A DNA stretch of 64,000 nucleotides from Paramecium tetraurelia (Eukaryota), in NCBI GenBank assembly GCA_000165425.1, contig CT868049.1:124001-188000 (forward strand), read 5' to 3'. Shown here one piece after another: positions 2,974 through 64,000 of the stretch. Below the pieces are notes generated by a model. It did no database searches. It was not told where the DNA came from and saw only the letters and a list, made by a program, of their open reading frames with translations. Positions within the stretch are counted from its first letter, which is position 1; each line of letters opens with the position of its first letter. Both the position numbers and the translations under genes were made by a program.

Positions 2974-3178
2974 CTGAATATAAATATTTAAAATTGATTA
3001 TTAGCTTAACTTTTTTGCTATTATTTTAGATTAATAAATTGGACTATTCGATAATAAATGAAAAAGTAATCATCAGTCTAATCTACAGTTATTTATTAAC
3101 TCTAGATTGCATATTGTGTGATTGCAAGTATATAAACAAATTTTCTTTTATAAATATATTTAATATAAATATAACACA

Positions 3179-5423
3179 ATGCAATTCTTATTGTATTCAA
3201 TATGCTTCCTATTGCTCCTCGTATAGGTTCAAACATAGGATGAGAATGAGATTAAGTGTGACTAATATTTTGTGAACATTACCACAGCCATACTCATGGG
3301 AAAAATGCCAACCAATCTGTCACCGTAAACAATTCTAAGCTCAGCAAAAGGACTTTAAGATTTAGGTTCCTATCTGGTTTGTAAGGATTCTGCGGATTTA
3401 CATTACATTCATCTCAGAATGATGAGCGAAGGAAAACCTATGCATATGGGTTTTTGTTTACCCGAATATTGCGAATAGAGTCACCTCCAAAAATATAACA
3501 CCCCAACCAAAGATCTCATCAACAATTTTACTGTACTTATCTCCATCTTAACCGTTAGATGCGTCTATATAACAAATCAATGGTCGACAGCGCTTCCTAC
3601 TAAGATCCAGATTTAATTTATCCGTCATGGACTGTAGGAACCTATTTGACTCTAGTTCTGTTGATTGTCATAGTGGCACTCAATGTTATCGGAAGCATCT
3701 TTTCGATTATAGCAGAAAACAAAAAATAAGCGTATTAAGATGACCTGAAGACAGAGATCAAGAGGAAAGCAGCCCAGAAAATAAATGAGTCCCACTAGGA
3801 TGAGAATTCATTAAAGGACTCCATATCTCAACTCTACAAGAGATCAGAATTGATTTGTAAATAAATAAATAAATTATATTTAGAAAATGAAATCATGGAG
3901 AATCAGGAATCTGCTTTCATGAGTGGCAAAGGTTAATTCGAAGAAATCAAATACAAGAAATACAAAGAACCATCTTGGGAAAGATTCGCTTTGAGTTTCT
4001 CCTTTATCCACAATTACCAAAAACTATTTAAGATTAATGAACCCAAAGGTGAGAATGCTGGATTTGTGATTTTTAATGGCATAAGATCATTGTCAATATT
4101 TTGGGTAATTTATGGTCACGATCAACTCATTCGAGGCTCCAATTCCTTCAATTTGATAGATATACCATACAAGATCACTGAAGCCGGATGGCTCACACTC
4201 ACACCAGCTGCATACTTTGCTGTCGACACCTTCTTTTTTGTGGGAGGATTCTTGGCTGCTGTTTTACTTCTGGAAAAGTTGACCAAATTGAGGTCCATCA
4301 AGTTTTCATTGGTGCCAGCAATGTGGGTACATAGATTCTTAAGAATATGGCCTACATATGCATTTTGCATTCTAGTGTATTGGCAATTGACTGTTTATTG
4401 GTCAGATGGACCTATCTGGAATGAATATATAGAGTATACCTCCACTTGCAATACTTAATGGTGGAAGAATCTATTATTCATTGACAACATGTTTTCACAT
4501 GATGCCAGTGGATTGAACTATTGTTTTGGTTGGGGTTGGTATCTATCCAACGATTTCCAGATCTTTCTTATCACTCCAATATTATTGATTATCTATGCTA
4601 AAAACAGAAAAATTGGATTAGCTCTTATTATTTCAATGCTAATCGGAAGCGTATTTTCAGCCTATTACATAGCTTATTCTCACGATTACCATTTATAAAT
4701 GGCCACTCCTAATGCTAAACCACAGCCAGACTATCAAGATGTTTTCTACTTCAAACCTTGGATCAGGATCTCTCCCTACCTCATAGGCATCCTATTTGGA
4801 TTCTTCTATTGCAATTACATTAGTGGTTAGAATTAAAAAATGGTTTAAGTGGCATAGAAAATTAAGGACAGCGTAGTTATCAGAACCCTATTCTATGTCT
4901 TCGGAATCGGGTTGACTTAAACGATCATTTGGATCATAGTCCCTCTTTAAAAGGACATGAATGCTTGGCCTCCTTAAGCCTAATATTTCTACTAAGCCTT
5001 TAACAGAGTGTTTTTTGTCATAGGTGTTGGATTGTGCATTACTCCTGCTCTTTTGGGTTGCAAAAATGATCCGTCAAGATTTATGTATACTTTGATAATA
5101 ATTTAGACTCGGACATCCCTTTTGGCAACCCATAGCCAGAATATCGTTCTGCATGTACTTGACACATTTCATAGTGATTCTGTTCATGACCTTCAGCACC
5201 ACTCAATTGGTTTATTATCAGTAATCACACATTCTCTATTTCACCCTCACTGACATTGTGTACACTATTATTATTGGGGGCCTCTTAAGTTTAGCCATTG
5301 AAGTAACGCTTTCATATAACGTAGGTGCCTTGCATGAATCTTGAGAAGATTCTGTTTGCTCCCAAGAAACAAGAAGCCGCAAAGATGAATGCCAATCAAG
5401 TAGAAAGTAGGAATGATTTATGA
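3179..5423 (+). CDS. NRF-6-like / acyltransferase-3 family O-acyltransferase
   Basis: Signal peptide MQFLLYSICFLLLLV, Cys-containing NRF-like ectodomain (DLGSYLVC...GFCLPEYC), FNGIRSLSIFWVIYGH, AVDTFFFVGGFL, HRFLRIWP, WYLSNDFQ, YFKPWIR, ARISFCMYLTH. Confidence 0.92.
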
Positions 5424-19402: not shown

Positions 19403-21851
19403 ATGCAATTAAAAACTAAGCTATTGCTAACTTAATTGATCTTGTCCAATTTAATTAGTTTGATAAGGTCAGGAAGCTAAGAAACCAAAGATTTGATGAC
19501 GATTACTCTAAATTCAATTGGATTGTTATTGGATTTAATCATTTTTTGTTCGGAATATGCAAAACAAAAATAAAACCTTATTAACATTTAGATTCAAATA
19601 AACATTATTGTGTAACTGGAAACACTCTTTTACGATGTCTAAAACACCAATAATTACTTCACTGTCATATACCTGCTATTAATGCAAATTGATTTGAAAA
19701 AATAACATCAATGCTACTAATTTTTAACTCATACGATCTGCTTATATGTTTTTACTCGACTCGCTGCCTAATTCTATGTGTAATTTACTACTTCCTAGTT
19801 TATTCTCTTTGTTCTTTGGTAACCCCTTAATCATTTAATTTTATACAAAGAAAAGTCCTAAAATGAAATCCGAAAACCAAGTCCCACTTCTCAATCATAA
19901 AGACAACCTAATCACAATGCCCATTTCAGCTATATGGAATAATGTTAGTAGAATCTGATCGATGAGAATACCCCACATATCGATAGGAACATCAATGTAG
20001 CTCTCGATGAGGATCTACTCAACTATCTCCCCTACGGATTAGTTCTCATAGACACCAACCTTCAAGTCATAAAGCACAACGAGAAATTGATGAGTTACTT
20101 GATGATAAATCAAGCAGATTAAATTTTGAATCATTTAGATTAATTACTGTCCAAGTAACATTTATTCGTATGAATTAGTGCCTAACTGAATTCAATAAAA
20201 TCTAGTCCGCATACAAAGCACAAACCGCATATTGTTCCCTTGAGGAAATTGAAATAAAATTCAGCCAGTCAATATTAATATAATACTGGCATCAAATCTA
20301 ATAGCGCTAACTGGTTGTCGGATAGGCTGAAGGTCAACATCTAGAATAAAGGGTCCTTCAAATCGAGCATCTAAGAAGCAGGAACCCATTCCTATATTTA
20401 ATTTGTCATGAGTGAATTTTTAAATAAAAGCTTCATTAAGATTAATCCTTCAGAAAATCTATCCATGGCATCTGATTAGACTCGCATGTTTAAGTTTCAT
20501 GTAGTGAAAGATCTCAAGGTCAGAAAGAAGCACTTTTAGATTAAAGTTTATGAAGTAAAACTATAAACGAAAACAAAAGATATTGCATTCCTATTTATAA
20601 TTGAAAATATTACAAATAAAGAGGAGTTGAAGGAATTGACTAGTAGATTCAAATTTCAATAAGCATTATTGAATTCATTCAGTCATGAATTACGAACACC
20701 TTTAAATAGTTCATTACCTTTATTGCAAATTTTAAGTAAAAAAATAGATGATACCCTCAATGATAACTACTTATAGTTAGCAATTGTCTCTTGTCGTAGA
20801 TTACTGTTTTAAATAAACGACATATTAGATTATGCATAAATAGAATGCGAGGATTTTAAGTTGAATTCAAACAATTTTTTAGCAAGTGATATTTTTGATG
20901 ATCTAAAAGAATTATTTTAATAAGAATGCTCATAAAAATAGATTGAATTAATTCTAAATTATAATTCTCAAATAACAATCTACAGTGACAAATTAAGAAT
21001 AACCTAAATTTTAGTTAACTTATTAAACAATTCAATCAAATTCACAAAGTAAGGAGGCAGAATAGTTTTGTCTTTAAAAAAGAGAGTCTCTTAATGCATA
21101 TTTTCAGTGTGGGATAATGGTGAAGGAATATCCAATGAAGAAATGTTGACACTCTCAAATTAATCCATGTACTATTAATTAGGATCGAATAAAATGGGAT
21201 TGGGCTTGAGAGTTTCAAAAGGAATAGCAAAGTTTTTAGGTGGAGATGGCGAGTTGCAAATAAAGAGTGAAAAAGGATTTTACACAATTGTTAGCTTTTC
21301 GATAGAGGAGTCTGTCAGTACAATGATGAAAGATGAGGATTCATCAATACGGGACATAGAGGAATTAGGATCTGACACGAAGAACTCAGCATAAAGAGTA
21401 TATATATCTTCAAGGAAATTCCTGAATCATTGTGAATGCAATCAAATTTTGATTGTTGATGATGTACCTTTCAATCATATCACTTTAATTGCATTACTTC
21501 AAAATTATGGATACAAGGCAGATAGTGCATACGATGGGGATTCTGCAATCAAGAAAGTGAGATAGAGATAGTAAAATATTTGTTGCAAAGCCTATAAAAT
21601 AATATTTATGGACATTGAAATGCCAGGGAAGAATGGGTTTACTACTAGTAGTGAGGTATTATATTAAAAATCAATTAGAGATTTCTAAACTATTACAAAA
21701 TGAACGATAAAAATCCATCATTGTGATGTGTTCTGCTTATAATGGGTTGGAAAATGCAGAGTTAGCACATTAGAGTGGAATGAATGAAATAATTTCGAAA
21801 CCTATTTCATTGGATTCTCTATAAACACTTTTAGGGAAATACTTTTGTTGA
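19403..21851 (+). CDS. Hybrid histidine kinase (hydrophobic N-terminus, PAS-like, HisKA, HATPase_c, receiver)
   Basis: LLNYLPYGLVLIDTNLQVIKHN (PAS-like), H-box FSHELRTPLN, N-box QILVNLLNNSIKFT, G1 DNGEGI, G2 MGLGL, receiver LIVDDVPFN...IIFMDIEMPGKNG...KPI. Confidence 0.94.
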
Positions 21852-41499: not shown

Positions 41500-44400
41500 A
41501 TGTTAAAATTAGTTAGCATATTGCTGCTGACATTGTTGTTAGTGAAATCAACGGAAATTCATGGAACCATCAATGTGAAAGTTATATTACCGAATTAAAT
41601 TTCCGCATAAGAATCGAGTGGGGAACTTGATAAAGCATATAGATAGAATGAATTACGAGAGAATTCTGTAATGAAGGATATTGCTATGTATAAATGCATT
41701 CTATTCAGCTTAGAAGTTTTCTTGAAACAGGTAGGTCTGTTGAAGTGAACGAAGTAAAGGATAAATCCATTGAAATTTGGTCACAAAAATCATTGGAAAT
41801 AGAATAGCAACCACTAATCAAAGCAGAATAGACAAATGAAAATGCAAAAACTATTGAAGTCTAATCTGATTAAGTAAATAAGGAATCAGGAAGCTAATAA
41901 AAGAAATTATCCATTAAAGTACAAAAAAAGGAAAATAAATCAGTTGAGTAATCAACTAGTGATGTTATTGCCAATCCAAATAATAATGTTGAAGCAAAAG
42001 ACAATACAAACTAATCTGATAAATAAAAAGAAGCTTCAATATAGTAAAAGAAATTTTCAGTTTCTGTAAGCAAAAAGCAAAAATCAGAAGAGTAGAATGC
42101 TAGCCAATAGTAATAAGAAGTTTAGAATGAATAACTCTAAAATGAGAATAAAGAAAAAGTCCAAGAAGAGATTTAATAAAATACTTAAACAGCAAATACA
42201 GAAGCTGAAGTATTATCTAAAGACAGTACTTAATAATAAGATGCATCTGCTAATAATTAGGAGGTTGAGAATACTTAAACTGAATCTAAGAATATAGAAG
42301 CAACTAAATAAGTGGAATCTAGTAGTTCATCTTAAGAAATTAAGGTTGATGATTAATTGGAATAGAATAATGATTAAAACTAAGTTAAAACTGAAATCGA
42401 CAATCAAAAAGAAACTTAAGCTGACACTGCAAGTGAATCAATTTAAGAATAACAAAATTAAATTCCAGCATAATAAAATGAAACGGAATAACAATAAAAG
42501 GAGAATGTTGTGTAAAAGGAATCTTCTGAAGTAGAAACTTAATAATAATAAGAATTGAATACTTTATAAGATAAAAACATTAATAAAATATCTGTTGAGA
42601 GCAAAAAAGATGAAATTGAATAGTTGGCAAAAGATGATGTTTAAAATGAGGTTGTGATTCAGGATATTAAAATAGAAACTTAACCAATTCAATAAGTAGA
42701 TGACAAGTAATAATAAGCAGATACTAATAAAGTTGATGATTCAGAAATCTTAATCAAATCAGATGAAGAGATCAAAGTTGATCCAGTAGCATCAGATTCT
42801 AAAGATTAAGGAGAAAAAGAAGATTCTGCTGAGGAAGTTGAGGAGGAACATTCAAATAATACAGAAACTAAATAAAATTAAGATGATAAAGGATAAGCAC
42901 CTGATAATTAGGATGATTAACATGATCAACCAATTGAAGAAAATACCTAATGTGATGGGGAAGAGTTAGATACTGTACATGCATAAGAAAGTTAAAAGGA
43001 AGCTTAAGTGAAAGCAGAAACTTAAAATACAATTGAATAAAAATAAGCAGAAGATGTTAAATAAGAAGAAGTAGTTAATTAATAAGAGGTAGTTTAATAA
43101 TAAGAAGATATCAAATAAGAAGGAGTAGTTTAATAATAATAATAAGATGTATAATAATAAGAGATTAAAAAATAGTAAGATGTAAAATAATAAAAATAAG
43201 AGATCAAATAATAATAAAATGCCAATTAAGAGAAAAATAAGGATACTGATAAATAAAAGTAGGCTGAAGCACCTGATTTCATAGTCAAAAAGAAATAATT
43301 GACTAAGAAAATGAAGGAAGTTATTAATGATATGAAATAATCAGACAAAGCTCCTTAAAACAAATTGTACAGTTTGAATGTTTCAAATTTAGATCCTGAT
43401 GATGTGATTGTCATAAAAGACACTGCCTACTTTGACACAGATGCTGAAATAACAGTTTAAGAAACAATTAATCCAGAATAATAATTAATTGGAGAAGTTG
43501 TAAAGGTTTAAGCTGAAATTGAGAAAGTTGATCTGAGCATATTCGCTGATGATAGTTCTGATTTAGTTCCAATTATTGTTGAAGACACAGACAATTATGT
43601 CTAATCTGAAATTATCACTGATGCAATCAAGGATGTCACTGAGAAGGAAATTGAAATAATGGAAGAGGATAAGAATTTAGGAGAAGCTGATGTTGATGTT
43701 TAATCCTTGATTTCTGATTAAGTAGAAATCAATGCTAATTAAATCACTAAGAATATTTAGGATGACTATACTTTGGATTATGATTAAATGGAGACTGATG
43801 TTATTTAAAATAATAGTTTAAATAATGATGGAACTAATTTCGATTAATTCCAATCCTAATTAGATGAATTAGCAAAGGAACTTGATAATCTTAGTTTGGA
43901 ATAACCATCATAACCTACTTTGGAAGAACCATCTTAACCTGCTTTGGAATAACCATCTTAACTTACTTTTGAAGAACCTAAGGTTATTGACACACAACAG
44001 ACTGAGGTTGCAAAAGAAGATCAACAATACTTAACCATTGTTACCAATAATGACTCTACAATTACCAACACTGCTTCTGATGATGATTATTATTTGGATG
44101 ATTTAGATAATGAGTTAGATTAAATTATTTAATAATAGACAAATGTCTAATAGGAACCTGCAATTTAAGAATAGGTAGTTTAATAAAGCAATGATATTGA
44201 ATAGAAAGATGAGGTGACATAAAGCTAAGAAGTTTAATAAAATGATTAAGTTGATGAATTAAATAATTAGGATGAATAATAAACTATTCAAATTAATGAT
44301 GAAAGTAAGTCTAATCAAAATCTTGATGTTGATGAAAATCTTAACAATTATGATGATTATTATCAAATGGATAATTCAAATGAATAAGATGTTCAATCAG

Positions 44401-46333
44401 ATGTATAATAAGAATAAACTGAAAAATAAGAAATTCAATAAGATGATGTTTAATAAGTAGAATAAGAATTAGAAAACGAAGAGATATACGAAAGTTAAGT
44501 TTAATCCAATGAAGAGGCTGTTGTTAGTGATGGAGTAATGGTCTACACTGGTGATTCTAATGTTAATGATCAGGAATCTGATATTAATAAGGATTATGAT
44601 CTCTCATTTGAAGATTCAAATTCATAGGAAAATACAAACTAAGATGATTCAAGTAAAAAGTAGGATGCAAGCATTACATAAGATCAATAAACTTAAAATG
44701 TTGAAGCAAATTAAGAAATTAAAACATAAGTAAATGTAGATAAACCAGATTAATAATAAGAGGTAGTCTAAAATCAAGTGGTTGAGTAGTCAGATAATTA
44801 AGTAACTGAAAATAAGGTAGATGTTAATTAATAAGAGAATTAGGTAAGTGTTGATTAGTCTAATTCTGATGAACCTTAAAAATAACTAGAATCTTAATAA
44901 GAGAGTGTATCAGTATCAAAAGAAGAAACCGAGGCTTAATCTAACGTCTCTACTTAATAACCAGAACAACAGGCCTAATAATAAATAGAAGAATAAGTTG
45001 ATGAATAAGAAAATGAAATTACTTTAGAAAATGCAGCTGCTTCTGAGGAAATCAAATCTGAAGATCTACCTAAGGTTGAGATCAAGAAGAAGTAATTGTT
45101 GAAAAAGAATATTACTATAAAAGAAGAAGCTGATAACACTATTACTAATGAAGACATCAATGGAGAAGGAACTGTTCAAGAGGATAATATTGAGGTTTTC
45201 TATAATGATTCTTAAATACCTTAAGCTGAAACAGATGAAAACTTAGACGTTAAATCTGAACCAGAAGTTATTGAGAATCTTGAAGACTTAAAAGATTGCA
45301 TTGAAAATGATGAGGATGAGCATACTGTTGAAAATAAGGATGAGGTTGCATAGGAGAAGAACGAGAAAAAAGAAAAGCACTCCATAAAAGTGAGTAGGGA
45401 ACAGATACCATAAAATAAGTAGTAGGATAAATCTTTGAAAATTGAGTAAAATGAAAAATAAACTAAATTTGAAGAATAATTACATCAGTAGATTATCAAC
45501 AAAAAGTAAAAAGAGAAATAATAGTTGAGTAATGAGGAGTAATTTGATTAGATTGTGAATGAATTAGTTCATGAATTAGAAGCTACAACCAATAAAAGAG
45601 TTGAAACTAGAGAACAAGAATAATAAATTTATTAGGATATTAAAAAGAATGTGGAAGAACTTAGATAGATTCACAATAGTGATGATGTCATAGTTAAAAA
45701 GAGAGTAGATGTAGTTGAACAAGATGTAGATGCAGTTAATGATGAAAAAAATAAGGAGAAGGAATTCCAATAGAAAATTGAAGAACTATTGCGAACATAA
45801 TAAGCTTAAGCTGCATCAAAGAACAAAATTAATGATGGTGAAAGGTATTATTTGGATAAGCCTGTTAATTAAGCAGTTAGTGATTATGAAAAAGAATTGA
45901 ACTAAAGAAAATAGGAAGTTATGGAGAAAATTAAGAATGATTTGTAAATCAAGAAGGGTAGATTCTCATAGGATAACTAGAAATCAGATAATTTATCTCC
46001 TTATGAATTCGAAAGAATCTACTTGGATTGGACCCAAAATAAAAATGATATTATATCTAGTATGTTGTCTCATGCATCAGGTTCAGAAGTGTAATTGGAA
46101 TCATCAATCTCAGAAGAACCAGTAGCCAAAGTTGAAAGAGTGTCTAAAAAGCAAGAAGTTGAATAAGAAATCCAAGAATTGTTCTCAAATTATAAACCAA
46201 ATAAACAATAAATAAAGAAAAACGGAGGTATAATAAATATTATATAATCACTCTAGATTCATACGAAACAAGTTTTTTGGCAGTCAATCAACAAGTCAAG
46301 AAATCTAAGAATTTGCGAGGAAATAAAAAATGA
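41500..46333 (+). CDS. Large secreted, very acidic Q/E/D-rich protein (~1,590 aa)
   Basis: Signal peptide MLKLVSILLLTLLLVKS, two tiny introns near the ends, ~4.5 kb low-complexity exon; C-terminus DSYETSFLAVNQQVKKSKNLRGNKK*. Confidence 0.8.
43896..43979 (+). repeat. 24-bp coding tandem repeat (3.5 copies)
   Basis: Encodes LEQPSQPT-LEEPSQPA-LEQPSQLT-FEEP. Confidence 0.8.
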
Positions 46334-46682
46334 TGAAGAAATCGAATTTATAACATAAATAAAAGTATTTCATAAAAGCTTCGTCTCTAATTCTCACTAA
46401 ATTCTAAACTATTTAAATATAATTTATATTAACAATAATAAATAATTTCCCTTGGAATAATTCGTTTTTACCATTATTGTTAATTAACTAAGGCAATTTA
46501 TTTCTAATAGGAAAATATGAAGCACTTCAGATAAGAGGAATAAAGTCCATCTTACTTATAATTGTTAAGATGAAAGATAAAATTCAAAATTGTATTCAAT
46601 AGAGAAATTGATATTTATATTTTTTATTGCATCCTTAATAAAATCTATATTTAATTTCTTACTAAAATATTAATATCTTAAA

Positions 46683-50760: not shown

Positions 50761-52269
50761 TCATCTTATAATTAAATCCCTTGCACTCTTTGAAGTTAAA
50801 TTTACAACGATATCTTTATTGGGTTAGGTTTCCACATTTTCAGTGTCCACTATCAAAGGAATATCAGATTGCTGCGTATTCTCACTTCTTGTTTTCATCC
50901 TCTGCACAAATGGATTAACTCTGCTAGTTTCTCTTAAACTGATATCATTATTAAAACTAATCCATGGTTTGCTTTTTATGTTCTGTTCTATAAATTCTTT
51001 TCGACACAAAGGACAACACTTCTGTGTCTGTAACCATTTGAATAGACAATGCTAATGAAATAGATGATAACATGGAGTCAGTGAGCAATGATCTATATGA
51101 TCTCTTTCTGTCAATTTGCCTTATTGAGGAGGAGCCATAGATTCTAAACAAACCACACATTCAACGAATTCACTTAATTGGGGATATTTGTCTATTAAAT
51201 CCAAGTAATAAAACTGTGGGAAATACGTTTGGATAAATTCCAACTTAAACCCTTTCAGAATATCCTCATTTTATTATTGCTGCATTCTTCTTCTCCTTCT
51301 GTTGACTCTAAACTCTCGTTGCACTAATCTGATTTACTCTCTTTGTTGTTTTTATCTTATCTTCCGAAATATCAGATAGGTGATCAATATGAAACAAGTG
51401 AGAAAGATAGATTGAAGGATGATCTATAGATGATAGGGATCACTTTCTAGCAATTATTCCTTATCATACAATTCAAAATAGAACAAGATTGGAAATGAAT
51501 GTTAATTGTAAAATCCAATATTCAAAAATGAGCAATTCTCACACATCTACTGATAATAGATTAGATCGCCCTTTAATTAGTATATCTATTACTGTATTTT
51601 CTTTGGAATCATATAAGCATCATAGTGGACATTAGGAACTTCATGATTTTCTATTCCCTCCATTCCCAATCCCATCAACATCTCAGATGACTGATCCCTT
51701 ATTCTCAACTTTAAAGTGTCATTCAAATTCAATTATTTGGTTTCAAAACCAATGTATATCCATTCAAGAGGTTTAATGATAATATCATATTACATTTGCA
51801 AGACAGCAATGGTTCTCTAGAGTTAACAAAACTTCCCAAAATAGCCAGACTTGCACAAACACTACTTGTTAATTGAATTACATGTATTACCTTGTTGAAT
51901 ACAAAAGGAAGAGCATTCTCCAGATTGATTCTTGATTAGGATTGAGAAATTAGAGTATTGATTATATGATTGATTTAAGTACCCTGCATATATGTACAAA
52001 TCGATAGCAGACTCAGTAAATATGACGTGGACATCGTTGTTTGTGATGAATGACTCATGATCATAATTCAAAGACTGTATTTTATCCTATCCTTCTACAT
52101 AATAGATATTTTCAAATTATTTATTTGATGATGCCAAAATAAATGGCTGATGCAAATGCGAATGTAATGTTACTTGAATTTCGAGTGCAGATTGGTTGAA
52201 AAGGTAAAGAAAATTAGTTTAGTTTTGTTATGCTTAAGTCAATAGGATTTATAAAATAATAAATAACAT
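50761..52269 (-). CDS. Type I membrane E3 ligase: signal peptide, EGF-like domain, TM, RING-H2
   Basis: MLFIILQILLTQA; CSSFCIQQGNTCNSINKQCVCKSGYFGKFC; TM IILQSIFLTCFILITYLIF; CVVC...[26 protein letters not shown]. Confidence 0.88.
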
Positions 52270-52276
52270 TAATAAT

Positions 52277-52840
52277 TCAAAGAAATAGTTATTAAGTTTA
52301 TAAATTTTCTAAAAATTGTTTAAATTCTTGCATATTTTTATTAGCCCCCTCCAGAGTCTCCTTAATTTGATCCCACTTTTGAGATTTCTGACTATTATGA
52401 AATTTGCTGCATTTGTATGAATTAGGCTCAGTCTTTAATTTTGGAGTAAAATGTCTATTCAAAATCACCCCCAAAGGTTTCCTTGGAGACTGGGGTTACT
52501 GAACTTGTTTGAGTTTCTACCAAACCTGTTGGGGCTTACTATTAAATCAAAAATCGATTACAACATCGAATTTGTCCAATCTCGGCAATGGCCCATCTGG
52601 AGGCACTCCTCTAAAGGGTTTGTCTAATTATTTTTCAAGAGTCATCTCCAATAGAACACGAGCATATAATAAAGAATTCTATTTCCAAATAAAATTGTGA
52701 GTTGGAGTTCTCACTTTATCTAGCCATTGCAATATCCTTATTCTGAGATGTTTATCATTGATCTTCTAACAACTATTGTAGATCTTGTTGATAGTGTCAC
52801 TTAATTCTAAATCCAGAGTTTCTGCTCTTGGAGAATTCAT
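52277..52840 (-). CDS. DUF4485 (CEP112 N-terminal-like) domain protein
   Basis: MNSPRAETLDLEL...RIRILQWLDKV...WKQNSLLYARVLLEMTLEKQLDKPFRGVPPDGPLPRL; one 27-nt intron; TGA at 52277-52279. Confidence 0.8.
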
Positions 52841-54588
52841 TAATTTAACGGATAATATTAATAATTTATCAATCCTCTGCGATCCAACTCCTCCACAATA
52901 TAATTATTAATGATCTCTTCCTTGGGTATTTCTAAGGGCAAGGGTCTCAACAGCAAAGCCAATCCTTTCTTCTGACTTTAATGATAGACCTTTCGAAAAG
53001 CATCAAAATCTTGATTCCATTTCTGCAACACATTCGTAAATAATTTCTTATATATAAACATTATAAATTATCTATTAAAATGATAATAATAAATGCTATA
53101 CTAATCATGAATTAAGTAATGAAGGGGATCCCTCTTGTTCTTGTTCTTTTCCTGCTGCTACTATTGTTAAAGGGGCAGTTGCGAGATTGATTGCTATTTC
53201 ATCCTCAAGATGTCCCCATAGATTTGTTTGCATTGATGGGATATGGCTATCTTCATCTATGCCATGAATTCCAACCTTTTGTTCTTGTGTCTAACAAGCA
53301 TGTTTATACATTTTTTAACTAATTCTAAATGATCACTTACTTAGATTAACAGTGTGCAGCCCTTTTGTGACTGTATAATGGCTTCTGATGTTTTATCTGA
53401 GGATTTCGATGACGATATTGTTGCTTTTTTACTTAACTTTATCTTTCTGACTATGGATGCAAATCTACATACTCAATTAGCAGAGCAACAAGGCTCTTAA
53501 TTTAATTTTAGGTCCTTGATGTTAAATGTTATTTTTAATTTTGTTGATGAATTGCATAGTCAATATTTGTTTCCTCATATTTTTTTCAGATATGCGTTTT
53601 TGTACTTTAATGTAATTACTGATGGATGGTACTATGTAATTGACTAAGATGACAATCTAAATCCATTTCTTACATACCCATTCTTTATGCATTTATCTAC
53701 ATTTATCAGTATAACAGATTACTTTAGTTGTATGTTCATCTATTTTTACTTGATTTCTTTGGCAACATCATGCAAAGCTATCTAGGCAATTCGTTTTAAA
53801 CTTTACTCCTTCTATATAATTGTCTATTTAAATTTAATTTCTTTTTATCTCTCAGTGTTACAGGGAGATTCAATTCTTAATTTTCTCGGCAGTGATCTAT
53901 TAAGGTTAATGAAATTTAAGGATTTCTGTCTTAGCTTACGTTTTCGGATGATTAAATCAGCTAGCTCTTCTATATCTGAACAGAATTCATCTTTTTTTTT
54001 TATTTAAGGTATTTTCCTAGGTATTGGAGGCTTGGCAAACTCATTTTTGATAGTAATTACCACATCATTATGTGCTAATATGGCAACGTAAAGTGTAGGA
54101 TCAAAAAAAGTTGTGCCTTCTTTAGAGTGATATTTGAGCACTCGACCATAAGTTTCGATTTCTGCATTGAAACGATTGGGTTATTAGAATTTCACGGAAC
54201 AAAACAATCGCATTTTAGTATTGGGATCACCTTTTTTTACGTAGATGAATAAGACTACTGGTGAATATTTTTCATGGATATCTAGGGAGGTATAAAGGAA
54301 TTGATTTCTATAGAGAGTGAAGGTAGTTTCACCCCAAACATCCAATTTGTTATTCTAAATGAAGTGTTTCTTTCTGCTTGGCAATTCTCTTTGAGTCAGA
54401 TTATATTCTTTGATATCAAAGGCTCGATGGCTGAATTGATCAAGTAATGCAAATTTACTATTCAGATTGAGCTTTTCCTCACTTAGTATGCGAGAATCTA
54501 AAATAAGGGAATCAGCTGCACTCGGAGGTTCCGTTGTGAAAATCGAAGGAACAACCGATTTTAGATGTTTAGGTTTATAATATAACAT
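52837..54588 (-). CDS. Hypothetical protein (start may lie upstream at 54672 or 54750)
   Basis: MLYYKPKHLKSVVPSIF...IHEKYSPVVLFIYVKKGDPNTKMRLFCSVKFQQPNRFNAE...; frame followed through 2-3 tiny introns to ...LEIPKEEIINNYIVEELDRRGLINYQYYPLNQ* (TGA 52837-52839). Confidence 0.75.
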
Positions 54589-54595
54589 ATAATTA

Positions 54596-57500
54596 TCAGT
54601 CGATTTTATTTTCTCTTTCTTCTTGTCTGCTTAGTTCTATGAATTTGTCCTCTACTCTTCTGTAGAGTTCATTGTACTCTTTGAAAATGACTTTGCAAAT
54701 TCTGTATGCCTTTCTATAATAGCCTGTGTTGCCAACTTTAAGTTTGACATCTGTAATTTTGTCTTGATTCAAGAGTGCTTCTCTCTTCGCTCCTGTTTTG
54801 ATTTACATTTAGGTATCAAAGTCTAAAAGGATAGTTTGTTTTTTGGTGAGTCTCTGCTTGTTCATGGAAATTCTCTCTTGTTGTTTTCTTTCTGTGAATT
54901 TTTATAGTTTTTATAGCAAATACACTTCGAATCCATTGTTTTTGTAATCATCGAAATACTTCCCTAATTGTTCATTACGTAAATAGATTTGGACAGTAAT
55001 CTTATATCTCTGGTCGTAAGTCAAGGTATTGAATAGACTATGAGAAGGACAATCCAGTATGATTTTGATGTTGTCTTCTTAAACTCTTTCCAGATTTTCA
55101 CAGAGTAAGGCATACCCTTCATAAATCATGACCCCATATGGATGTTCACAGGTGGGACACAACTATAAGATAAGGGATGAAGATATTTACCTTTTCTAGA
55201 TTGGATAATGATCTATCCAACATGATTTATGCTTGATACAGTCTGTTGGCTATGAATGCTATTCTGTATTAGAGGATATCGCAGTAGACAATGCTAAAAT
55301 GTTCAGTGACATTTACGGAGTTGAAATATTCTTTATAGAACCTATAACATTGATCTAGCAAATCGAAAGTCCATTGTGTGATGAGTGTTTCACTGAGCCT
55401 CTCTTCAATATCATCTGGTGTATAGAATTTATATGGGAGATGAGATTTGTAAACATAGGGTTCAAAGAATTCTGCCTCTCTTCTTGTAAAGAAGTATTGA
55501 CTTTTGAATGCCATTTTAAAGGACTAGAATCCATTATATCCTCTTTCTTTGTGAATGAGTATAAATTCAGCATAGATCATGAGAGCATCTACGTAGAGTA
55601 TACTCTTCCTTCCCATTGTTTTACGGATCTTTTCTAGGATTCTAATGATGGATTAGAAGAGTCTATGTAAATCTGTATCTTTCTCGTGCATTCGACTGTA
55701 GTATTTATAGATTCTGCATCTTGATCTTAAGGTGAAATAATGATTGAATTGATTCAATTGATCCAATAGTAGACTGTCATTTGTGAATTTGTCACGGAAA
55801 GATCCAGAGATATGTTAGACTGGCAATTTTAGATCTTCATATAAGTTCTATTGACCCAGATATCTCCTGGCTGCTCTTTCAAAGAAGAGGGATGCACGTT
55901 GTGTTTGTCTGATAAACAAGAAGTAAGTGCCAATAGAATACTCAAAGTAAGTTCTGGCATAATCCTCTTGGTTGTTTAATTTCACATAATGATTATAGAG
56001 CATTTGGAAGTGATTGTGAGCCTCTTTGTACATTCCAACCAAGGCATAATATTCTAATAGTTTCCACTCGCATTAATAATAGATTAATTTGTATTTCTGG
56101 AATGCCTCCAATTATTTTGGTTTTGCATAATCCAAAATGTTCAAAGCATGATCATCCCAAATAATCTTTGTGGTTGGAAACTCATTCATTCTTAATTTAG
56201 CTTATTCTGCAGTGTTTGTGACTATGTCTACACAGGCTAATAAGGCTGTCTTTCTAGTCTTCAACAATTGGGGACCACACGAAAATATATTCAAAAATAG
56301 CTTCATTATGGCGACTTTGCATTTTGCTCCCAATAGATTTGGATCATCATTCTCCATTTTCTACGAAAAGACCTATTACACTTATCGACTGAATCTCTCA
56401 TCATAGAGAATCAAGGCATATTGGACATCCAAACATTTCAAGGCTGCTATGGGATCTCCACTCTCTTCTAATAATTGAGATTGGACAACAAAAAGATCAT
56501 TCAAACAGATGGATTTCTTTTCCATCTATCTTTTATCAACTGGAATTGAGATATCTTTGTAATCTATCAATTCCTTCTATTTAATCTTATCTTCAATATC
56601 GCAGATTTCAGAAAGCAGATTTAGAGATAGATCTTAAAGGTATTGATTCAAAGTAGTCAAAATGAAGAACTTTATCTCAAAATTCTTATCAATATAATCG
56701 TTATTCTCCTTATCCTTATATTCTTCCAACAATAATTTCACAAAGAAGATCTTGAATTATTGTTATAACTATTTGCAATCATACTTTTGGGATGCAATTT
56801 CAATTAACTTAAATGCCAACTTGCACACTAATTATGCATACAAATTATTTAGATCGAACACAAAAGTTATAAACAGATTCTTCCATGACAAATCACTTAA
56901 TTAGAATTTAACATCGTGTTACAATTCTATCATTTTGTTATTCTTCATTTACCATGCATCAATCAATCTATCTATGGTGCACTTCGTATTATCCAAAACA
57001 CTCTTGGCTTATGAGTATTTCTATTTAGCAAACAGTTATTTGGCAACTAAGAAATGATACCTATTCCTTAACTATTACTCATTTATCTCTAAATAGAGTT
57101 CGTAATCCATGTCCATCTGTAGGTTGCACTCTAATTCAAAAAACAATTGACTCAGGTAATCATTCTACCTTGAGAATGACTTTGGCATATGCTAATAGGA
57201 CTTCAACAACAGTCTTTATTGTCCCTCCTCTGAATTCTTATCGTATTGTGTAATCATTCCATAATTTATTATGCCCAATTGTAAGTTTATGATCTACAAC
57301 AATTTAAATTACAAGTAATCAACGAGAAAGAGGTTTTTGTCACTATATTAATACAGAATTTGGAGATAATCCTCCACGAAGTGAATATTATAATTGTAGT
57401 ATAAGAGATTGATGCAACACTCAAGATTGTACAACCCTATCAAAGCCAACTCCTTATGTTTACTCTATGTTGACTTGTACTTCTGAATCCAATAATTCAA

Positions 57501-60500
57501 GTAATCATAGTTATTTTAATAGTGATCTAAACACCATTGAGTTTAAGATTGTAGAGTCAGAGTTTCCTAATGAACCAACTGTTCAAATAGACACTGCTCA
57601 TCTGAAGGCTTGATAATGACACATTTTTTCATTGCCTCATGGTATTACTCGCTTTCAATGTGCAATTTAATCAATAAATTACGTATTTTCAAATTATAGT
57701 ACTCAGATTGGCAATCCAACTTACTCAAATATTGAATACTCTAGAGTCTGTCCTTCTGAATTTTCCCAATATTTATATGTAGAATTAGTTGTCTTAAGGG
57801 ATTGTTACTGAATTTTAAGGCTTTATTGAACAACTCGATTGCATACGATGAATTCTATTTAAACATTTCTCCGTAGGCCTATAGAAATAAAAACTTGATT
57901 CGTATCTACTCTAATTTCTTATGCAAGGCTTCGTAATTCTCTTTCTGTACTCTCAACCGCTTTCTGATGAGTAATTTATCACTTTGCTAATCGAAATCAT
58001 CCAAAATACTTGGAGATGCGTATCTCTCAATCTTGGTTATGAATTGATAGATATCACTTAGATTTGGTTGGTAGGATATGGAATAAATACCTTGCAAGGT
58101 TAGATTATTAAAGAAGTAATAAAGCTGTTTGTAAAACTCAAATTAGATGAAGTCCAACATTAATTTCTGGTGATGTGCTTTGTCGCAATAAAAGGCGAAG
58201 TTCTTAGATATGTGAGTCATATAATATTCTTTATTGTAAATGCTAGAGGCAATGGAATCAGTTACAGTCAATTCTTCTTAGAATTACTTGAATAACTTGA
58301 ATTTATACAACATATCCATTTTGAATAGTTGTTGAGACAAGACTTGATGCAATTTCTGTGTTTCCAATTGATTGGATAATTCATTCTAATCATATAATTT
58401 CAGATCTTAATAATTGATATCCGATATTTTCGAATCCTCAATTAGTTACTGTGATAATCTTTCATTTTCCAAAAACAATTCTTCATTTCCACACTCTGTT
58501 TTGCATAATTATTTAAAGTAATTGTAGGGTTTCCTTTGATTTTCAGATAATAACATATCCGAAATGATAGTGAATACAATAGGATATTTGTTCATTAATC
58601 TTGCTTAATGTTCAATGAGATAATCTTTGTTGGTTTCAATCTAACCTAGAGTCATCATATAAACAACAATCATGGCTGCATTGTACACCATTTTGGATAG
58701 ATTGTTATTGTTTTCTTCAGTTGGAATATATAGTTTCTCCTTTTCAATATCCCTATTTCCACACATCATCCAATGGAAAGTGTAGCCAATTTAATTCTTA
58801 TTCCTATTTGCATAAATGGACTTTGGAGTAATTACTCGTTTATCCTTCCAATGAGGAATAGAATTCAATAAGTTGAGTAAGAACAATAGCAATTCCTTCT
58901 TCTTATAGGTCATATTGACTGATTGTCTAAACTTAATGGTGTCAAACAAAGTCCATCCATTCAATAATTCATATCTTGAATCCATAATTTTGCCAACGAC
59001 TCCTTTACTCTATGGGAAATAGAAGTGATCGAACATTGTAAACTCCTACAAGATCAAATCTTCAAATAAGACATTTTTATGTTGTAAATCAATTTCAATG
59101 ACTTCCAGTATTTTTAATTGATACTATTGAAGTATCAACCAAACTTCCTTTTGTTTGTCCTTCTCTATCATTTTGATCATCTTAAAATCAAGATTTCTCA
59201 TCTGAGCCTTCTGATTTTGAATAAACAAACTCTTCAATTCCGATTAATCTAAATACAAATAATTGGGAACCTCTTAATGATATAACTAACTTTGTATCGC
59301 TTCAATCTTCCGAGTTTTCAAAGAGTACAAATCTTCAATACTTCTTACTAACTCTGATTTGTATTGGTTAACTTGCACATACTAATCCCTAGATTGAATC
59401 AACAATTTGAGGATCTCCTGAGAACTACTCTTGCTGATATCCAAACAGGAGATCTCCTCAAATATCCTAGGTCTATCCTTAATAAGTTTATCCTTATTAA
59501 TTTTGATCATTTATATTGGTATAAGTCTTTGATTCAATTTCAATTTGCTTAGTTTTTAATCCAATCTCTTCAGATGTTCAATCATATCCTTGGCTCTTAA
59601 GATGGGAACCTACCTTCGAAACTACCCAAACCAAACTCCCTTGCTCTTCAAAATAGCCACATTTTTCACCTATTGTAGTGCTTTCTTCTTAGCCACTTGA
59701 TTAATCCTGGCAGTCTTCTGTTCTCTATCATTATTGTCTTCCATGAGACCAGCCTCTCTCTTCTCCTCTTACAAACGCTTATATCTATTGAACAACTATC
59801 TATAACTTTCAATGAACACTTTCAATTTCCTGATGTTCAAATACTTATACAATATGTATCTTCTTTTTTAATACAACCTCCTATAAAGTAATCTCTACTC
59901 ACACCATTTCAGTGTGTAATACTTCTCAAAGAACCTCAGCAATTTCTTTAATCTGGCTATCTTGTCATCGAATTCCTTCTAGGCATGAGCGATCTCAAAT
60001 TTCTTATAAGGGAAATCAAAATTATGAATGTTCTTCCTCAATATTATTTGTCTCCTCTTTACCAATAGGATTTCAGGCATTGCCTCCCTCTACGAGTCCT
60101 CCTCCTTCTGTTTCTATGCTATCTCCATTTAAGATTCATCATCATCATCGTCATCATCCTCCTCCTAGATCAACTACTTCTACTTCTTCTCCACTTTCAA
60201 AATAGTTCCATAGGGTTTGAACAATACATACTTTGAGAGTGTGTTTCTGTCGGACTTTAATCTCTTCATCTTACTTGTCTTCTTCTTAAAATGTTCTATA
60301 GTAGATTTCAATAGATAGGTTTGTCGTTTCATAATCGAAATAAACTCATAGGTTGCCTCTGGAATCAACCCTTCCAATATGAATCTCAAGGCAAATGCTA
60401 TCAAAATGATGATCAAAAACATAGTCACATCCTTAATCAATGGTGGAGTAGGCCCATTTCGATCAGGATGCAACTTCCCCATCAGAAATACAACACCTGT

Positions 60501-63500
60501 ATTGAAGATTATACTGAAATTTGCCAAGAATTCCAAGAGCAAACTCCAAATACCAATGCTCTGTTCATCCAAAGGAACTGGCCTTTGAGAATACTTGATC
60601 AATTTGATCTTATCAGTTTGCATTTCCAGAGCATTCCAAACAAATCCTATGAACATAGAAGCAGGGAATAAAGGTGCAAACAATCCCAACAAGCCAGATT
60701 GAATGATGATTTCCATGTAGTCATCCACTGTACCATATCTATCCACAGATTTGAAATAACTATCCTTTTAGGACTCCTACTCCACATAGTAGTTGATGAT
60801 TCCATATTCATCAATCGTTTCTGGCTGCTCCTGTGTTCGATTAAATAATTTGTTGATCACTGGAGTCACCACCTCCTTGATATTGAACACGAACAATATG
60901 ATGAACAAACTGGAGAAGAAGTATTTAGCATTCAGATTGCAATCCCCATAGGCACAATCAATACCCAATTCCTGATTTAGAAATGCTATCATAAATATAG
61001 GAGCAAAGTAGGACAGCAACATTAAAGTGAATTTCTTTATGATAAAGTTAGCCTCGAAATCTGCCACTGTTTGATGATTCTCCTAATCAGTCATACTCTC
61101 TGCTAATCTTTCATAGATGTATTCAAAGATGTTCAATATTAACACATTGATACTACAAGGGATACTCACTTCCAATTTCAAAAAGTTTAACCTCTCCAAA
61201 CTAGTGAAGATATCATATTCATAAAAGAACTTAGTCATATAAAATAAACCTATCACACTTCCAATGTATATACTAAACACAAATCCCAATATTAATCCAT
61301 TCTTCAACATATGAATAAGCAACTTACTCATTGGGTAATATAAGGTGTTAGCTTCATCGTTGCAAGGATCACGTCTGTACTCCCCCTAAAAGGCAGGTCT
61401 CTACTCTTATTACTCATTTCCCTGTTTGATATTCTAAGCAAATTGAGCCACTATCTACTTCTCCTTCAATTTCCAAGAACCCAACATCAATGTTAAAAAT
61501 GATGAATGCAATATCCCGAACATCATTGCAATTACAATTGAGACTCTGGGCTCAGTTAAAGACTGTATGATTGTACAAATCAATCCAATAATCCCTGGAA
61601 TCAATAAACTTTTGGTGTAATGTCCTAGAAATGTAAAATAAAGGGCAATCTTTTCCCCATAATATTCTCTTACTTCATCTGATGGCACATGCCAAATCTC
61701 CCCAATTTTGAGCTTCCAAATCTCTTCCAAATTATGCAATTTCGGTTTCACAAACAAACTCTCCGCAATCAAGAACTTCTCCTATAACAATCGTATATAT
61801 TCTTGAGCATCTGAACTTAAAGTCTGAGAGAATGCCTTAGGATCACTCTGAAAGAATCGCTTATTACTCAATCCATTCAATTCATATTGATCATTTAAGC
61901 CAAATATCTGTTCCAAATAGGACTTGTTGAATATATAAGGGATATTGATGGCTTAATTGACTAAGTAATTGGCCAACTTAATTCTCTCCATGATGGAAAA
62001 CACTGATATTCTCCCACTCTCACTCACTTGATATTTCTTCCAAATTGTGTTGATCCTACTCTTCTTCTTATATGAGAATCTCCTCCCTGATACAGTGTAC
62101 TCACTAGAGATGGCTATGTTATACAACTCTCCAAATGAAAAGTCCCAAATGCATTTTAATAAATTGCCCTTCGCATTATTAATGATCTACATTCCATCCC
62201 TCATGGCTGTACCGTATGCTTAAGCCAACAACCCTCTTTGTCTTTCCTTCAAGAATTTGGTGCATAAAGAATTCCATTTCAGATGGAACACCTTCTTCAT
62301 ATTCAGAAATTGCTCTTATTCCTCTTATATCTATTCCTTCCAAACCTCTTCCTCCTTTTCCATAAATGACAAGAACAAACACTCAATCAATTGTTATTTC
62401 ATAGAATCGTAATAGACTGGATTTTTGTCTCTGGTCAATGTGAATTGCTTTTAGTCCACCTTCTCTGGTATTTCCTTCATCTAAATACATAGTTGGTCGA
62501 TTATTTTCTTTTGGGCCGAGTCTCCATTGGGATCTACTAGTTTCTTGAGGCTGGTTTCTGCATCTTCTTCGTCATCGAAGTAATGTTGGATCTGCTTTAA
62601 GTAGGCTTCGATATTGGTTTCCTTCTCATTAATGTCTAAATTCAATTTATCCCTAACGAGATGTTAGAGGATCTTGAGTAGGATGGTATTGAAGTCTTTG
62701 GAATAGGTATCACAGATGATGAGGGGATTTTCATTATATTGTTTGATATTTTAATTTTTCTTGGTGGTTTTTGGAATGAACTTTTTTCTTTGATAAGAGA
62801 AATACCTTTTGATCTGTTGTTCTTATTTGATGGTTCTATCTTAGTCATTCAAATCGATTAATTGATTGATATCAAAATTACTCTTGTCATTTTTCTTGGT
62901 CACTCTTCTTAACTAAGCCTTGGTGACAATTTTGGTTTCTGCCTTCTTTTCTTTCTTTTTGGCAATAGAAGGATTCATCAAGACTGCAAAATCCAATTTA
63001 AAATAGAACTTCTCTCTGGCTTCAGTGACTCTTTATTCCAAATACACCAGATACTCATAATAGGCTTCCCATAATTCATCCGAGGGGCCTTCTTCGTCTC
63101 CAATTAGATCACGTTAGCCGTAATCAAACATCTAATCATTAAGATTCTGGATGTGCAATTCTTTGGCCATTTTCTTAAAATTAATCTTCTTAAGTAGATT
63201 GATGATCTTGGGTTTGATGTATTGAAAATAACTACTTTGATTCACATCCATATCGTTTCTCCATAGACGATTGTTCAATCTCAAGGGACGGTAATTCTGA
63301 TCTATGGGTTCAAGAGATAACAAGTCAGTAAATTCGAGATTGAGAAACTTTCTCATTTTAATTTGTTAAGCAACAAGAGAAATGTTGGCTTCTGCACAAT
63401 ACAAAATAGCAAAGATTGATTTGTTATCTGAGGATACGAATGTCCTCATTTTGAATCCCTTTTGACTCAACCTCAATAGAATCAGGTTACGAACCAAAGT

Positions 63501-64000
63501 ATAGAAATCTTTAACCTTATGATGAGTACGTTGCAGACCTCCAGCTGTTTTAATGATGAACTTTCCCCTTGTTAAGATCTTCTTCTTCAGAATCGTTGAG
63601 AACCCCTTCCTTTTTTCTCTATTCTTGCTCACCTTAAAGTTTTTATTCAAACTGTTCATCACTTTATTCCGTACCATCTCCACAAACTCATTATGCTCTC
63701 CTTGTATATTTAATTGATCATCCTCCTTGAAGAACAACTTGATTGCAGCTATCAGATTTTGAGTTGAGAATTGATTGGAGTATGCCAATTTGTTAGGACC
63801 CAAGTCATCCTATTTTGAATCCGCTAATTGGGAATAAGCATATTAAAATGCCATCGAAAGTATCTCGTAATCCAATTGCTCAGTTTTGAATTCAATCGAA
63901 CACCTAGTTCCTATGCCCTGTTATAGAAACTCCTAGGCTTCTATATATGAAATTGTTGCATAAGCCATCTCATCTGGATTCGGGAATTGCAGCACTACAT
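54596..64000 (-). CDS. Giant anoctamin/TMEM16-family protein (>3,100 aa, 5' end outside window) with long C-terminal extension
   Basis: VREYYGEKIALYFTFLGHYT, ESMTDQENHQTVADFEANFIIKKF, DDYMEIIIQSG, NALEMQTDKIKL, QRPVP..IGIW. No in-frame TGA from 64000 to 55191; one 28-nt intron (55163-55190), then open to TGA 54596-54598. Confidence 0.9.

Follow-up and report, generated by a model that had tools for sequence, protein, structure and literature searches.

A giant TMEM16 gene of Paramecium and the putative kinase-derived segment in its long tail

One protein-coding gene of aurelia-complex Paramecium encodes both a TMEM16 (anoctamin) core and a tail of ~1,900 aa, and this is confirmed here by its reading frame, its splicing and its RNA. 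The gene lies on the minus strand of a stretch of 64,000 nucleotides of Paramecium tetraurelia DNA (contig CT868049.1, positions 124,001 to 188,000), called below the window, to which all nucleotide coordinates refer. Within the tail, a segment of ~180 aa (58506-59051) is probably what remains of a kinase C-lobe, now catalytically dead, judging by its relation to paralogs. What is new is a gene that is solid in its existence and layout and is unstudied, together with a kinase reading that is indirect.

Gene layout and transcription

With the ciliate code (table 6), an open frame of 2,950 aa (55146..63998, residue 1 of the open reading frame, ORF, being at 63998) can be read on the minus strand, and it is still open at the window edge. 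A second frame, 54596..55576, overlaps it and terminates with the TGA at 54596-54598. The two are connected by a 28-nt intron, GTAAATATCTTCATCCCTTATCTTATAG (GTAAAT...TTATAG), at 55163-55190, with a frame shift of one base. Exactly 28 bases are absent at 55163 from an RNA contig of run X9 (depth 17.4 of 17.4). The splice is used in the protein models P0003-P0007, and sibling-species models read ...SNLEK before it and LCPTCEHPYG... after it. A first reading of the region, made from the letters alone (below, the sequence-only reading), had described one TGA-free frame from the core down to 54596 with a single intron. The frame and the intron stand, and the word single is valid only inside the window.

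The public model P0007 is the same as our reading in 2,936 of 2,936 exon-1 residues and in the first 169 of the 188 residues of the last exon. Our reading begins at its residue 93, the first 92 codons of the gene being situated beyond base 64000. Counted to the stop of the sibling species, the product has a length of 3,216 aa, and consists, in order, of an N-terminal region of ~868 aa, predicted to be cytosolic, the TMEM16 core, and a tail of ~1,900 aa, also predicted to be cytosolic (Table 1).

No in-frame TGA was found among the 1,710 codons of the tail portion of exon 1, whereas the remaining frames contain 64 and 79, and 35.6 would be expected from base composition (probability of no TGA, ~3e-16). 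Over all of exon 1, the counts were 0 in 2,936 codons versus 123 and 124 in the other frames. GC content per codon position was similar in tail and core. Only one strict intron-like GTA..TAG site is present in exon 1, at 56927-56952, and it is unspliced in an X9 contig covering 56552-58057. A short anoctamin-only isoform, produced through a hidden frame-shifting intron near the junction between core and tail, was considered and rejected for want of any strict intron-like site at that place.

Three stranded oligo-dT RNA runs (242, 316 and 265 reads) gave reads in one direction only. Their cover was unbroken over 54.6-64 kb and fell from the 3′ end, from ~3-5 in the interval 55.2-56.4 kb to 0.1-1 in the core. 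This continuous, 3′-declining cover is the pattern expected from one long poly(A) RNA. At the core-tail junction, no joint, loose end, pile of ends or rise in depth was detected in the RNA reads. Contig depth in X9 was 10-16 over the core, 5-17 over the tail and 0-2.8 over the neighbouring gene, and the X9 contig at the gene end (54573-55535) stops at 54573, 23 nt beyond the stop codon. Transcripts that split the channel from the tail had been named in the sequence-only reading as what would overturn it; RNA cover is continuous and no internal end was seen. We conclude that a giant TMEM16 protein with a ~1,900-aa tail is encoded as one gene, as proposed there: the open frame, the spliced intron, the sibling-species models and the continuous RNA cover all bear it out.

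The public model differs at the end of the gene. P0007 (3,895 aa) departs from our reading after ...EYNELYRR, where it skips a 19-nt 'intron', GTAGAGGACAAATTCATAG, at 54637-54655. It thereby bypasses the TGA and joins a downstream gene, including a DUF4485 domain at model residues 3775-3857. Since the only gap in the X9 contig 54573-55535 is the 28-nt one, and four sibling-species models end with ...ENKID, this fusion looks like an annotation error, the model being 679 residues too long. The downstream minus-strand ORF has its first ATG at 54584-54586, 10 nt past the TGA at 54596-54598, and the RNA contig of the gene ends at 54573. Either the gap to the downstream gene is almost nil, or the downstream gene begins at a later ATG.

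The TMEM16 core and the giant family

The core gave an end-to-end match to the Pfam Anoctamin family PF04547 (E 3.6e-85, 287 bits for a cut-off of 28, profile 1-460 of 460), at 60321-61673, which agrees with the ~61700-60350 at which it had first been placed by eye. When the core was searched against PDB sequences, all 20 matches at E<=0.001 were TMEM16 proteins. The best were Anoctamin-10 (9.6e-28), Anoctamin-6 (3e-24) and nhTMEM16 (8e-24), with the channel Anoctamin-1 behind (1.6e-19). A PDB match of the TM8 region to an 'engineered TPR' was rejected as an artefact of summed repeats, with 0 stretches passing. About 8 hydrophobic segments, for a family with ten membrane helices, were detected in the model P0003, all between residues 888-1307 (Kyte-Doolittle, 19-residue window, threshold 1.6), and none in the rest of the protein by the same measure, including the part past TM10. 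Because the hydrophobic segments are confined to this interval, both long extensions should be cytosolic.

The calcium-site residues on TM6-8 are intact in the alignments to solved proteins. The three stretches are FNIKEV in TM6 (60870-60887), DDYMEI in TM7 (60708-60725) and LEMQTD in TM8 (60612-60629). DDYMEIIIQ and NALEMQTDK align with YEYLEMIIQ and NILEIRVDA of Anoctamin-6, and with DDYLELFLQ and NFTEVNSDA of Anoctamin-10. The Anoctamin-1 alignment starts with query residue 29 at chain residue 650, so that the N and E of FNIKEV fall at 651 and 654. The calcium ligands of TMEM16 proteins are an N and an E in TM6, a D or E together with an E in TM7, and an E and a D in TM8, and these are the positions aligned here. 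The claim that the acidic residues of the site are retained was correct: NIKE, DDYME and EMQTD align with TM6, TM7 and TM8 of TMEM16A, F and K.

The same layout, splice and end are found in models of 3,216-3,218 aa from P. primaurelia, P. pentaurelia and P. sonneborni and in one more record. Averaged over all pairs of the five proteins, identity amounts to 95.5% for the core, 93.0% for the linker that follows TM10, 93.9% for the kinase-like segment, 92.4% for the remaining tail and 91.1% for the last exon. With 91.1-93.9% identity compared to 95.5% for the core, the tail is constrained nearly as much as the channel part.

More distant relatives were sought with the core as query, among proteins of 1,622-5,163 aa. 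Eight clusters were obtained: the protein itself, P0024, P0025, P0026, P0027 and three more distant giant anoctamins. P0024 (3,670 aa) and P0025 (3,657 aa) are Paramecium paralogs bearing the UniRef name 'Protein kinase domain-containing protein'; P0026 is 2,875 aa long, and P0027, which is N-terminally cut, 2,161 aa. Like the window protein, these four have the N-terminal blocks and the core, followed by a long tail. The sequence-only reading had suggested looking for the fusion in other ciliates; the architecture recurs in sibling species, in Paramecium paralogs and in other giant relatives. The two N-terminal blocks of P0003 are 45% (residues 249-441) and 32% (residues 670-1132) identical to P0025 (BLASTP). 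Scanned in pieces against Pfam at E<=10, the N-terminal region matched no family, the only row being a chance-level YdiH (0.033).

Homology to the paralogs continues beyond the core. A single hhalign alignment to P0025 (76-1582 to 94-1655, E 1e-90) reaches 264 residues past the Pfam core, and the linker was also recovered by BLASTP (tail residues 64-190 versus P0025 1520-1655, E 9e-8). This linker holds an acidic run, EEDDDDDDDES (60132-60164), followed by a basic helical stretch, with 23.8% K+R; an IQ/calmodulin-binding motif was considered in it and rejected, having no Pfam support at E<=10. Farther down, matches to P0025 are weak and collinear, and include 1863-1879 to 2041-2057 and, at the extreme C-terminus, 2943-3206 to 3375-3650. 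The five best matches of the tail to P0027 are weak as well, and 5/5 are in order; the match of 2126-2185 to 1184-1247 lies at the Pfam TPR_12 site of P0027. Given the homology of core and linker and these collinear weak matches, the tails of the window protein and of its giant relatives are homologous as wholes, having diverged to the point of being hardly recognisable now.

Compared to the window protein, P0024 and P0025 have the same order of parts, 32-45% identity in the N-terminal blocks and ~32-35% in the core, a homologous linker and a weak C-terminal match. They differ in that identity is undetectable across most of the tail, and in that their own segment passes the Pfam Pkinase threshold and keeps DFG and SPE, both of which the window protein has lost. 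P0026 and P0027 are 29-32% identical over N-terminal blocks and core and have a long tail as well, with a counterpart of the kinase-like segment that aligns at P 0.013. Their tails differ by carrying Pfam TPR_12, TPR_2 and TPR_19, whereas the window protein reaches only E 0.14 for such repeats. They also have a Gln content of 3.3-3.5% versus 7.5%, pointing to a different organism, possibly with a different stop-codon usage. On these comparisons, the gene is a member of an old family of giant TMEM16 proteins of ciliates.

Other searches gave fewer relatives. A word-indexed search with tail residues 1300-2950 retrieved the self-cluster alone (1 of 3,216 candidates), and a metagenome scan with the single protein matched 36 patterns, among which 0 relatives were confirmed. 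Two records, P0028 (Florenciella parvula, 2,900 aa) and P0029 (a JGI record, 2,475 aa), resemble the window protein in having an anoctamin core inside a very large multi-module protein. They differ by their extra modules, PKD_channel and Ion_trans, by having no kinase-like or helical tail, and by a core identity of 22-26%. These fusions mean that large TMEM16 fusions are not confined to ciliates. No publication on the architecture combining a giant TMEM16 with a kinase-like tail was found in a full-text literature search, and family members carry only automatic names in public databases. The accessible portion of a Stentor preprint (10.64898/2026.07.23.740246) reports an anoctamin to which eggNOG gave a PKG orthology number, and does not discuss fusions there; this assignment may reflect such fusions.

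The kinase-like segment and the rest of the tail

The kinase reading comes through the paralogs. When isolated, the P0025 segment (457 aa) matched Pfam Pkinase PF00069 with E 9.2e-10 (38.8 bits, cut-off 31.7), and the P0024 segment with E 5e-8 (33.1 bits, same cut-off), both over profile positions 78-253 of 263, a stretch that begins at the hinge and runs to the C-lobe end. A search of the P0025 segment against PDB at E<=1 gave 10 sequences, 9 of which are named protein kinases (KSR1 at 2.7e-4 and 4e-4, MNK1, STK4); the tenth belongs to an entry titled 'F22L4.1 protein' (0.0076). In the paralogs, HGQLNLDSFIL stands in place of HRDLKPENIL, the Asp of HRD being lost, and DFG and SPE are kept. 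As a side observation, hmmscan of the whole 3,657-aa paralog at E<=0.1 returned Anoctamin alone and missed Pkinase, which means that very long proteins are best scanned in pieces. The tail of the window protein was scanned against Pfam in this way, in overlapping pieces.

The segment of the window protein was placed on that of the paralogs by a MAFFT alignment of the full-length proteins, without guidance. The aligned blocks, window protein first, are LLNGWTLFDTIKFR and FCNGKTLKDVIKER, KRVITPKSIY and HGQLNLDSFI, GYTFHW near DFGMFF, MVYNAAMIVVYMMTLGQ and DIYSLGMVSLQMVTLGQ, and YPIVFTIISDMLL and YPNSSQLIMQLLH. With hhalign, the segment aligned to the paralogs with P 0.0033-0.0057 and to P0026/P0027 with P 0.013, and the paralogs aligned to P0026/P0027 with P 0.037. 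The three alignments cover 177-195 columns each and share one register. By alignment, KRVITPKSIY takes the place of HRDLKPENIL, GYTFHW that of DFG and IPTE that of APE, and no Gly-loop, VAIK Lys or N-lobe could be aligned to the Pkinase-positive segment of the paralogs. The residues invariant in four subfamily representatives are structural residues of the C-lobe, with 0 catalytic ones. Without a catalytic Asp, DFG, APE or a recognisable N-lobe, the segment cannot phosphorylate anything.

Several results weigh against a kinase origin. The segment matched 0 Pfam families at E<=10. Its only PDB match by phmmer at E<=10 was CNOT1 (E 0.37), which leaves no kinase, and a mixed family profile had 0 PDB matches at E<=10. 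A HMMER search with 1,200 aa of the tail among 1.84 billion representatives returned 6 fragments of 44-96 aa, with no kinase and no full-length protein. An AlphaFold2 model of the segment, built on a 12-row alignment, was unusable (mean pLDDT 38.5, pTM 0.23); searched with Foldseek, it had 0 matches at E<=0.001, and with VIA-align its best Z was 5.1, on a single helix. As to the alignment with the paralogs, the hhalign probability is 6-10%, and the Smith-Waterman score was reached by 67 of 1,000 shuffles for P0025 and 220 for P0026 (39 for P0024 and 10 for P0027). Among the Foldseek matches listed for the poor model, 38/44 are protein kinases, at a non-significant level (E 0.4-2.4, TM-scores 0.15-0.2), and the VIA-align rows for model residues 130-209 contain PknB (Z 4.2) and Mnk2 (Z 4.0), both on residues 141-209 and under the noise level of the tool itself; we regard both sets of rows as pointers, of no weight as evidence either way. 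Used as a query among shorter proteins, the segment also retrieved 9 fragments (30-91 aa), which evidently derive from other Paramecium genes truncated at TAA/TAG.

The most serious alternative is that this part of the tail is a lineage-specific helical scaffold that was never a kinase in the branch of the window protein, the P0024/P0025 branch alone having gained or retained a kinase domain there. The C-lobe likeness would then be due to chance or to helical composition. The failure of every direct kinase test on the window protein is what this alternative would predict, as are the marginal pairwise statistics just given (67/1,000 and 220/1,000 shuffles, 6-10% probability) and the lack of any catalytic residue among those invariant in the four representatives. 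It is harder to reconcile with the position of the segment, which is the same in proteins clearly homologous on both sides of it, with three independent profile pairs that extend over 177-195 columns in a shared register, and with an unguided alignment of full-length proteins that joined the segments. The kinases among the Foldseek matches listed (38/44) point the same way, though they are non-significant and come from a poor model. Overall we consider this alternative unlikely, and a remnant of a kinase C-lobe the probable identity of the segment.

The sequence-only reading had called this a kinase-like domain, lacking HRD and DFG, from the order of a few peptides. Each of the peptides it quoted was found once, at 58548-58973, inside the interval it gave (59150-58500). 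What survives of the claim is a collinear paralog segment that matches Pfam Pkinase, reached by a weak alignment; what does not is any direct Pfam or PDB match to a kinase. That reading had also stated that the absence of a kinase-fold match for 59150-58500 would refute it, and taken literally this is the outcome: no Pfam or PDB kinase match was obtained, and the structural model is unusable.

A second alternative goes further than a dead remnant, and supposes that the module is still able to bind nucleotide and that it controls the TMEM16 core as a ligand-regulated switch, making it a signalling pseudokinase and not a passive scaffold. The conservation of DFG and SPE in the paralogs would fit this, and so would KSR1 being the best solved match of the paralog domain. 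In the window protein, however, the DFG equivalent is GYTFHW and neither N-lobe, Gly-loop nor VAIK Lys can be aligned, and even the paralogs match Pfam from profile position 78 on only, which makes nucleotide binding very unlikely. Least credible of all is the very unlikely reading that two adjacent genes, an ordinary anoctamin and a large cytosolic protein, were read as one through a missing TGA or merged models: local gene models can err, as P0007 does in fusing the downstream gene through a 19-nt 'intron', and no single RNA molecule bridging core and tail was seen (raw reads are of 58 nt, with a depth <1 over the core), but there are 0 TGA in 2,936 codons, no strict intron-like site close to the junction, paralog homology unbroken from the core to 264 aa into the tail, a layout shared by 4 sibling-species models and by paralogs and relatives with lengths of 2,161-3,670 aa, and continuous RNA cover with no loose ends and no rise in depth at the junction.

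Beyond the kinase-like segment, the last ~1,290 aa are probably helical, judging from composition (Gly 1.8%, Pro 1.4%, Leu 13.5%). In the overlapping pieces of the tail, no known Pfam family was found besides a sub-threshold TPR_12 (PF13424; E 0.14-0.28, 12.8 bits for a cut-off of 30.1). Self-comparison of the 1,286-aa tail with hhalign revealed no tandem repeats, the best off-diagonal alignment having P 0.21 over 18 columns, and a PDB sequence search with two tail pieces returned nothing relevant. The suggestion that this sequence is TPR-like was therefore not upheld: E 0.14 is sub-threshold, internal repeats are absent, and only the relatives P0026/P0027 carry TPRs.

Table 1. Parts of the giant TMEM16 gene within the window
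Feature	Coordinates	Strand	Basis or remark
Exon 1 within window	55191..64000	-	open frame from 63998; identical to P0007 from residue 93
N-terminal cytosolic region (predicted), ORF residues 1-775	61674..63998	-	two blocks common with giant paralogs
TMEM16/anoctamin core, ORF residues 776-1226	60321..61673	-	Pfam PF04547
Calcium-site segments TM6-TM8 (predicted)	60612..60887	-	alignment to solved TMEM16
Post-TM10 linker, ORF residues 1227-1490	59529..60320	-	homologous to the linker of paralogs
Kinase-like segment (putative), ORF residues ~1650-1831	58506..59051	-	MAFFT/hhalign to the Pkinase segment of paralogs
Remaining exon-1 tail, ORF residues ~1832-2936	55191..58505	-	low Gly/Pro, Leu-rich
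Faint TPR_12-like stretch around YQCEWKLLEYYALVGMYKEA...	55860..56048	-	PF13424, sub-threshold
Intron, 28 nt, GTA...TAG; sole intron of the window part	55163..55190	-	X9 RNA contig
Last exon, 188 codons + TGA at 54596-54598	54596..55162	-	end ...RQEERENKID* common to P0003-P0006

No Rfam family, tRNA or notable DNA tandem or direct repeats were found. Four other open frames were noted along the window. A plus-strand ORF at 20174-21703, with HisKA, HATPase_c and Response_reg domains, corresponds to a hybrid histidine-kinase-type protein in a ciliate. On the same strand, 3262-5253 encodes an Acyl_transf_3 membrane acyltransferase (E 1e-19), and 41652-46520 is a frame of 1,622 codons, 214 of them TAA/TAG, with an extremely high content of Gln, Glu and Asp and no match to any Pfam family. 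The minus strand at 50761-52458 encodes a membrane protein that bears a RING-H2 finger at its C-terminus (zf-RING_2, E 1.8e-7). At 52670-53149, RNA reads of runs X20-X22 differ from the window at several bases, for instance 52697 G>A in 8/10 X20 reads. This could be due to a strain allele or to cross-mapping from a duplicate gene.

A possible mechanism, and comparison with known systems

The core would act as a calcium-activated lipid scramblase and/or a non-selective channel, like other TMEM16 proteins; this reading follows from family membership and from the closest solved relatives being scramblases. The likeness to TMEM16K/ANO10, TMEM16F/ANO6, nhTMEM16 and afTMEM16 consists in the end-to-end Pfam domain, the PDB matches (9.6e-28 to 1e-17) and the aligned calcium-site residues. 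The difference lies in what surrounds the core: the solved TMEM16 scramblases are 667-975 aa long with short C-termini, whereas in the window protein the core is preceded by ~868 aa and followed by ~1,900 aa. This tail might serve as a non-catalytic docking and allosteric platform, fixing the protein at a membrane site or recruiting partners. Within the family, a kinase C-lobe can still be recognised by Pfam in the P0024/P0025 branch, and TPRs in the P0026/P0027 branch.

Put together, these steps suggest a tentative proposal, doubtful as a whole. The protein would be a scramblase or channel, activated by calcium, with a kinase-derived switch and a docking platform of ~1,300 residues built into it, within an old ciliate 'TMEM16-pseudokinase' family. 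The platform would put the scramblase at a specific junction of cortical membranes, such as one between the plasma membrane, alveolar calcium stores and secretory organelles that are docked there, and gating would be coupled to the partners bound.

The nearest functional analogy may be Ist2, a yeast TMEM16-type scramblase, whose extension is of a few hundred residues with a basic lipid-binding end. According to the available parts of two reports, the C-terminal extension of Ist2 attaches to the plasma membrane and to the lipid carrier Osh6 (PMC12618243), and Ist2 links the endoplasmic reticulum and the plasma membrane via an intrinsically disordered stretch (PMC12617493). The likeness, which would be one of function only, is that of a TMEM16 core relying on a long C-terminal extension. 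The tail of the window protein differs in being probably structured, five times longer, conserved throughout, acidic at its end (...RQEERENKID) and provided with a kinase-like segment. An Ist2-type disordered linker with a basic lipid-binding end was not encountered in it, and no homology was found between the two tails.

Other comparisons concern the kinase-like part. TRPM6 and TRPM7 are the textbook membrane channels fused to a C-terminal kinase domain. That of TRPM7 is an active alpha-kinase unrelated to Pkinase, whereas the window protein would carry a dead C-lobe remnant on a TMEM16 core. KSR1, a pseudokinase that binds ATP, is the best solved match of the kinase-like domain of the paralogs (E 2.7e-4), and differs in being soluble and in having the full two-lobe fold. 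In Paramecium itself, a parallel fusion is the adenylyl cyclase with channel properties, as described in the accessible portion of one report (PMC10587447). The portion of a broad review of Paramecium excitability that was available (PMC8208649) contains 0 mentions of chloride or scramblase, so that, within that portion, no known current is waiting for such a gene.

TMEM16 proteins have been studied almost wholly in animals and fungi, where regulation is by calcium, lipids and short termini. In the TMEM16 protein of the window, two thirds of the length is conserved extra-membrane sequence, including what would be a kinase-derived module. It would offer a natural experiment on how scramblases and channels are positioned and controlled, and since Paramecium is amenable to RNAi feeding, tagging and electrophysiology and has a well mapped cortex, the question is directly testable. 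If the proposal made above is true, the TMEM16-pseudokinase family would be the TMEM16 counterpart of the channel-kinase fusions of animals.

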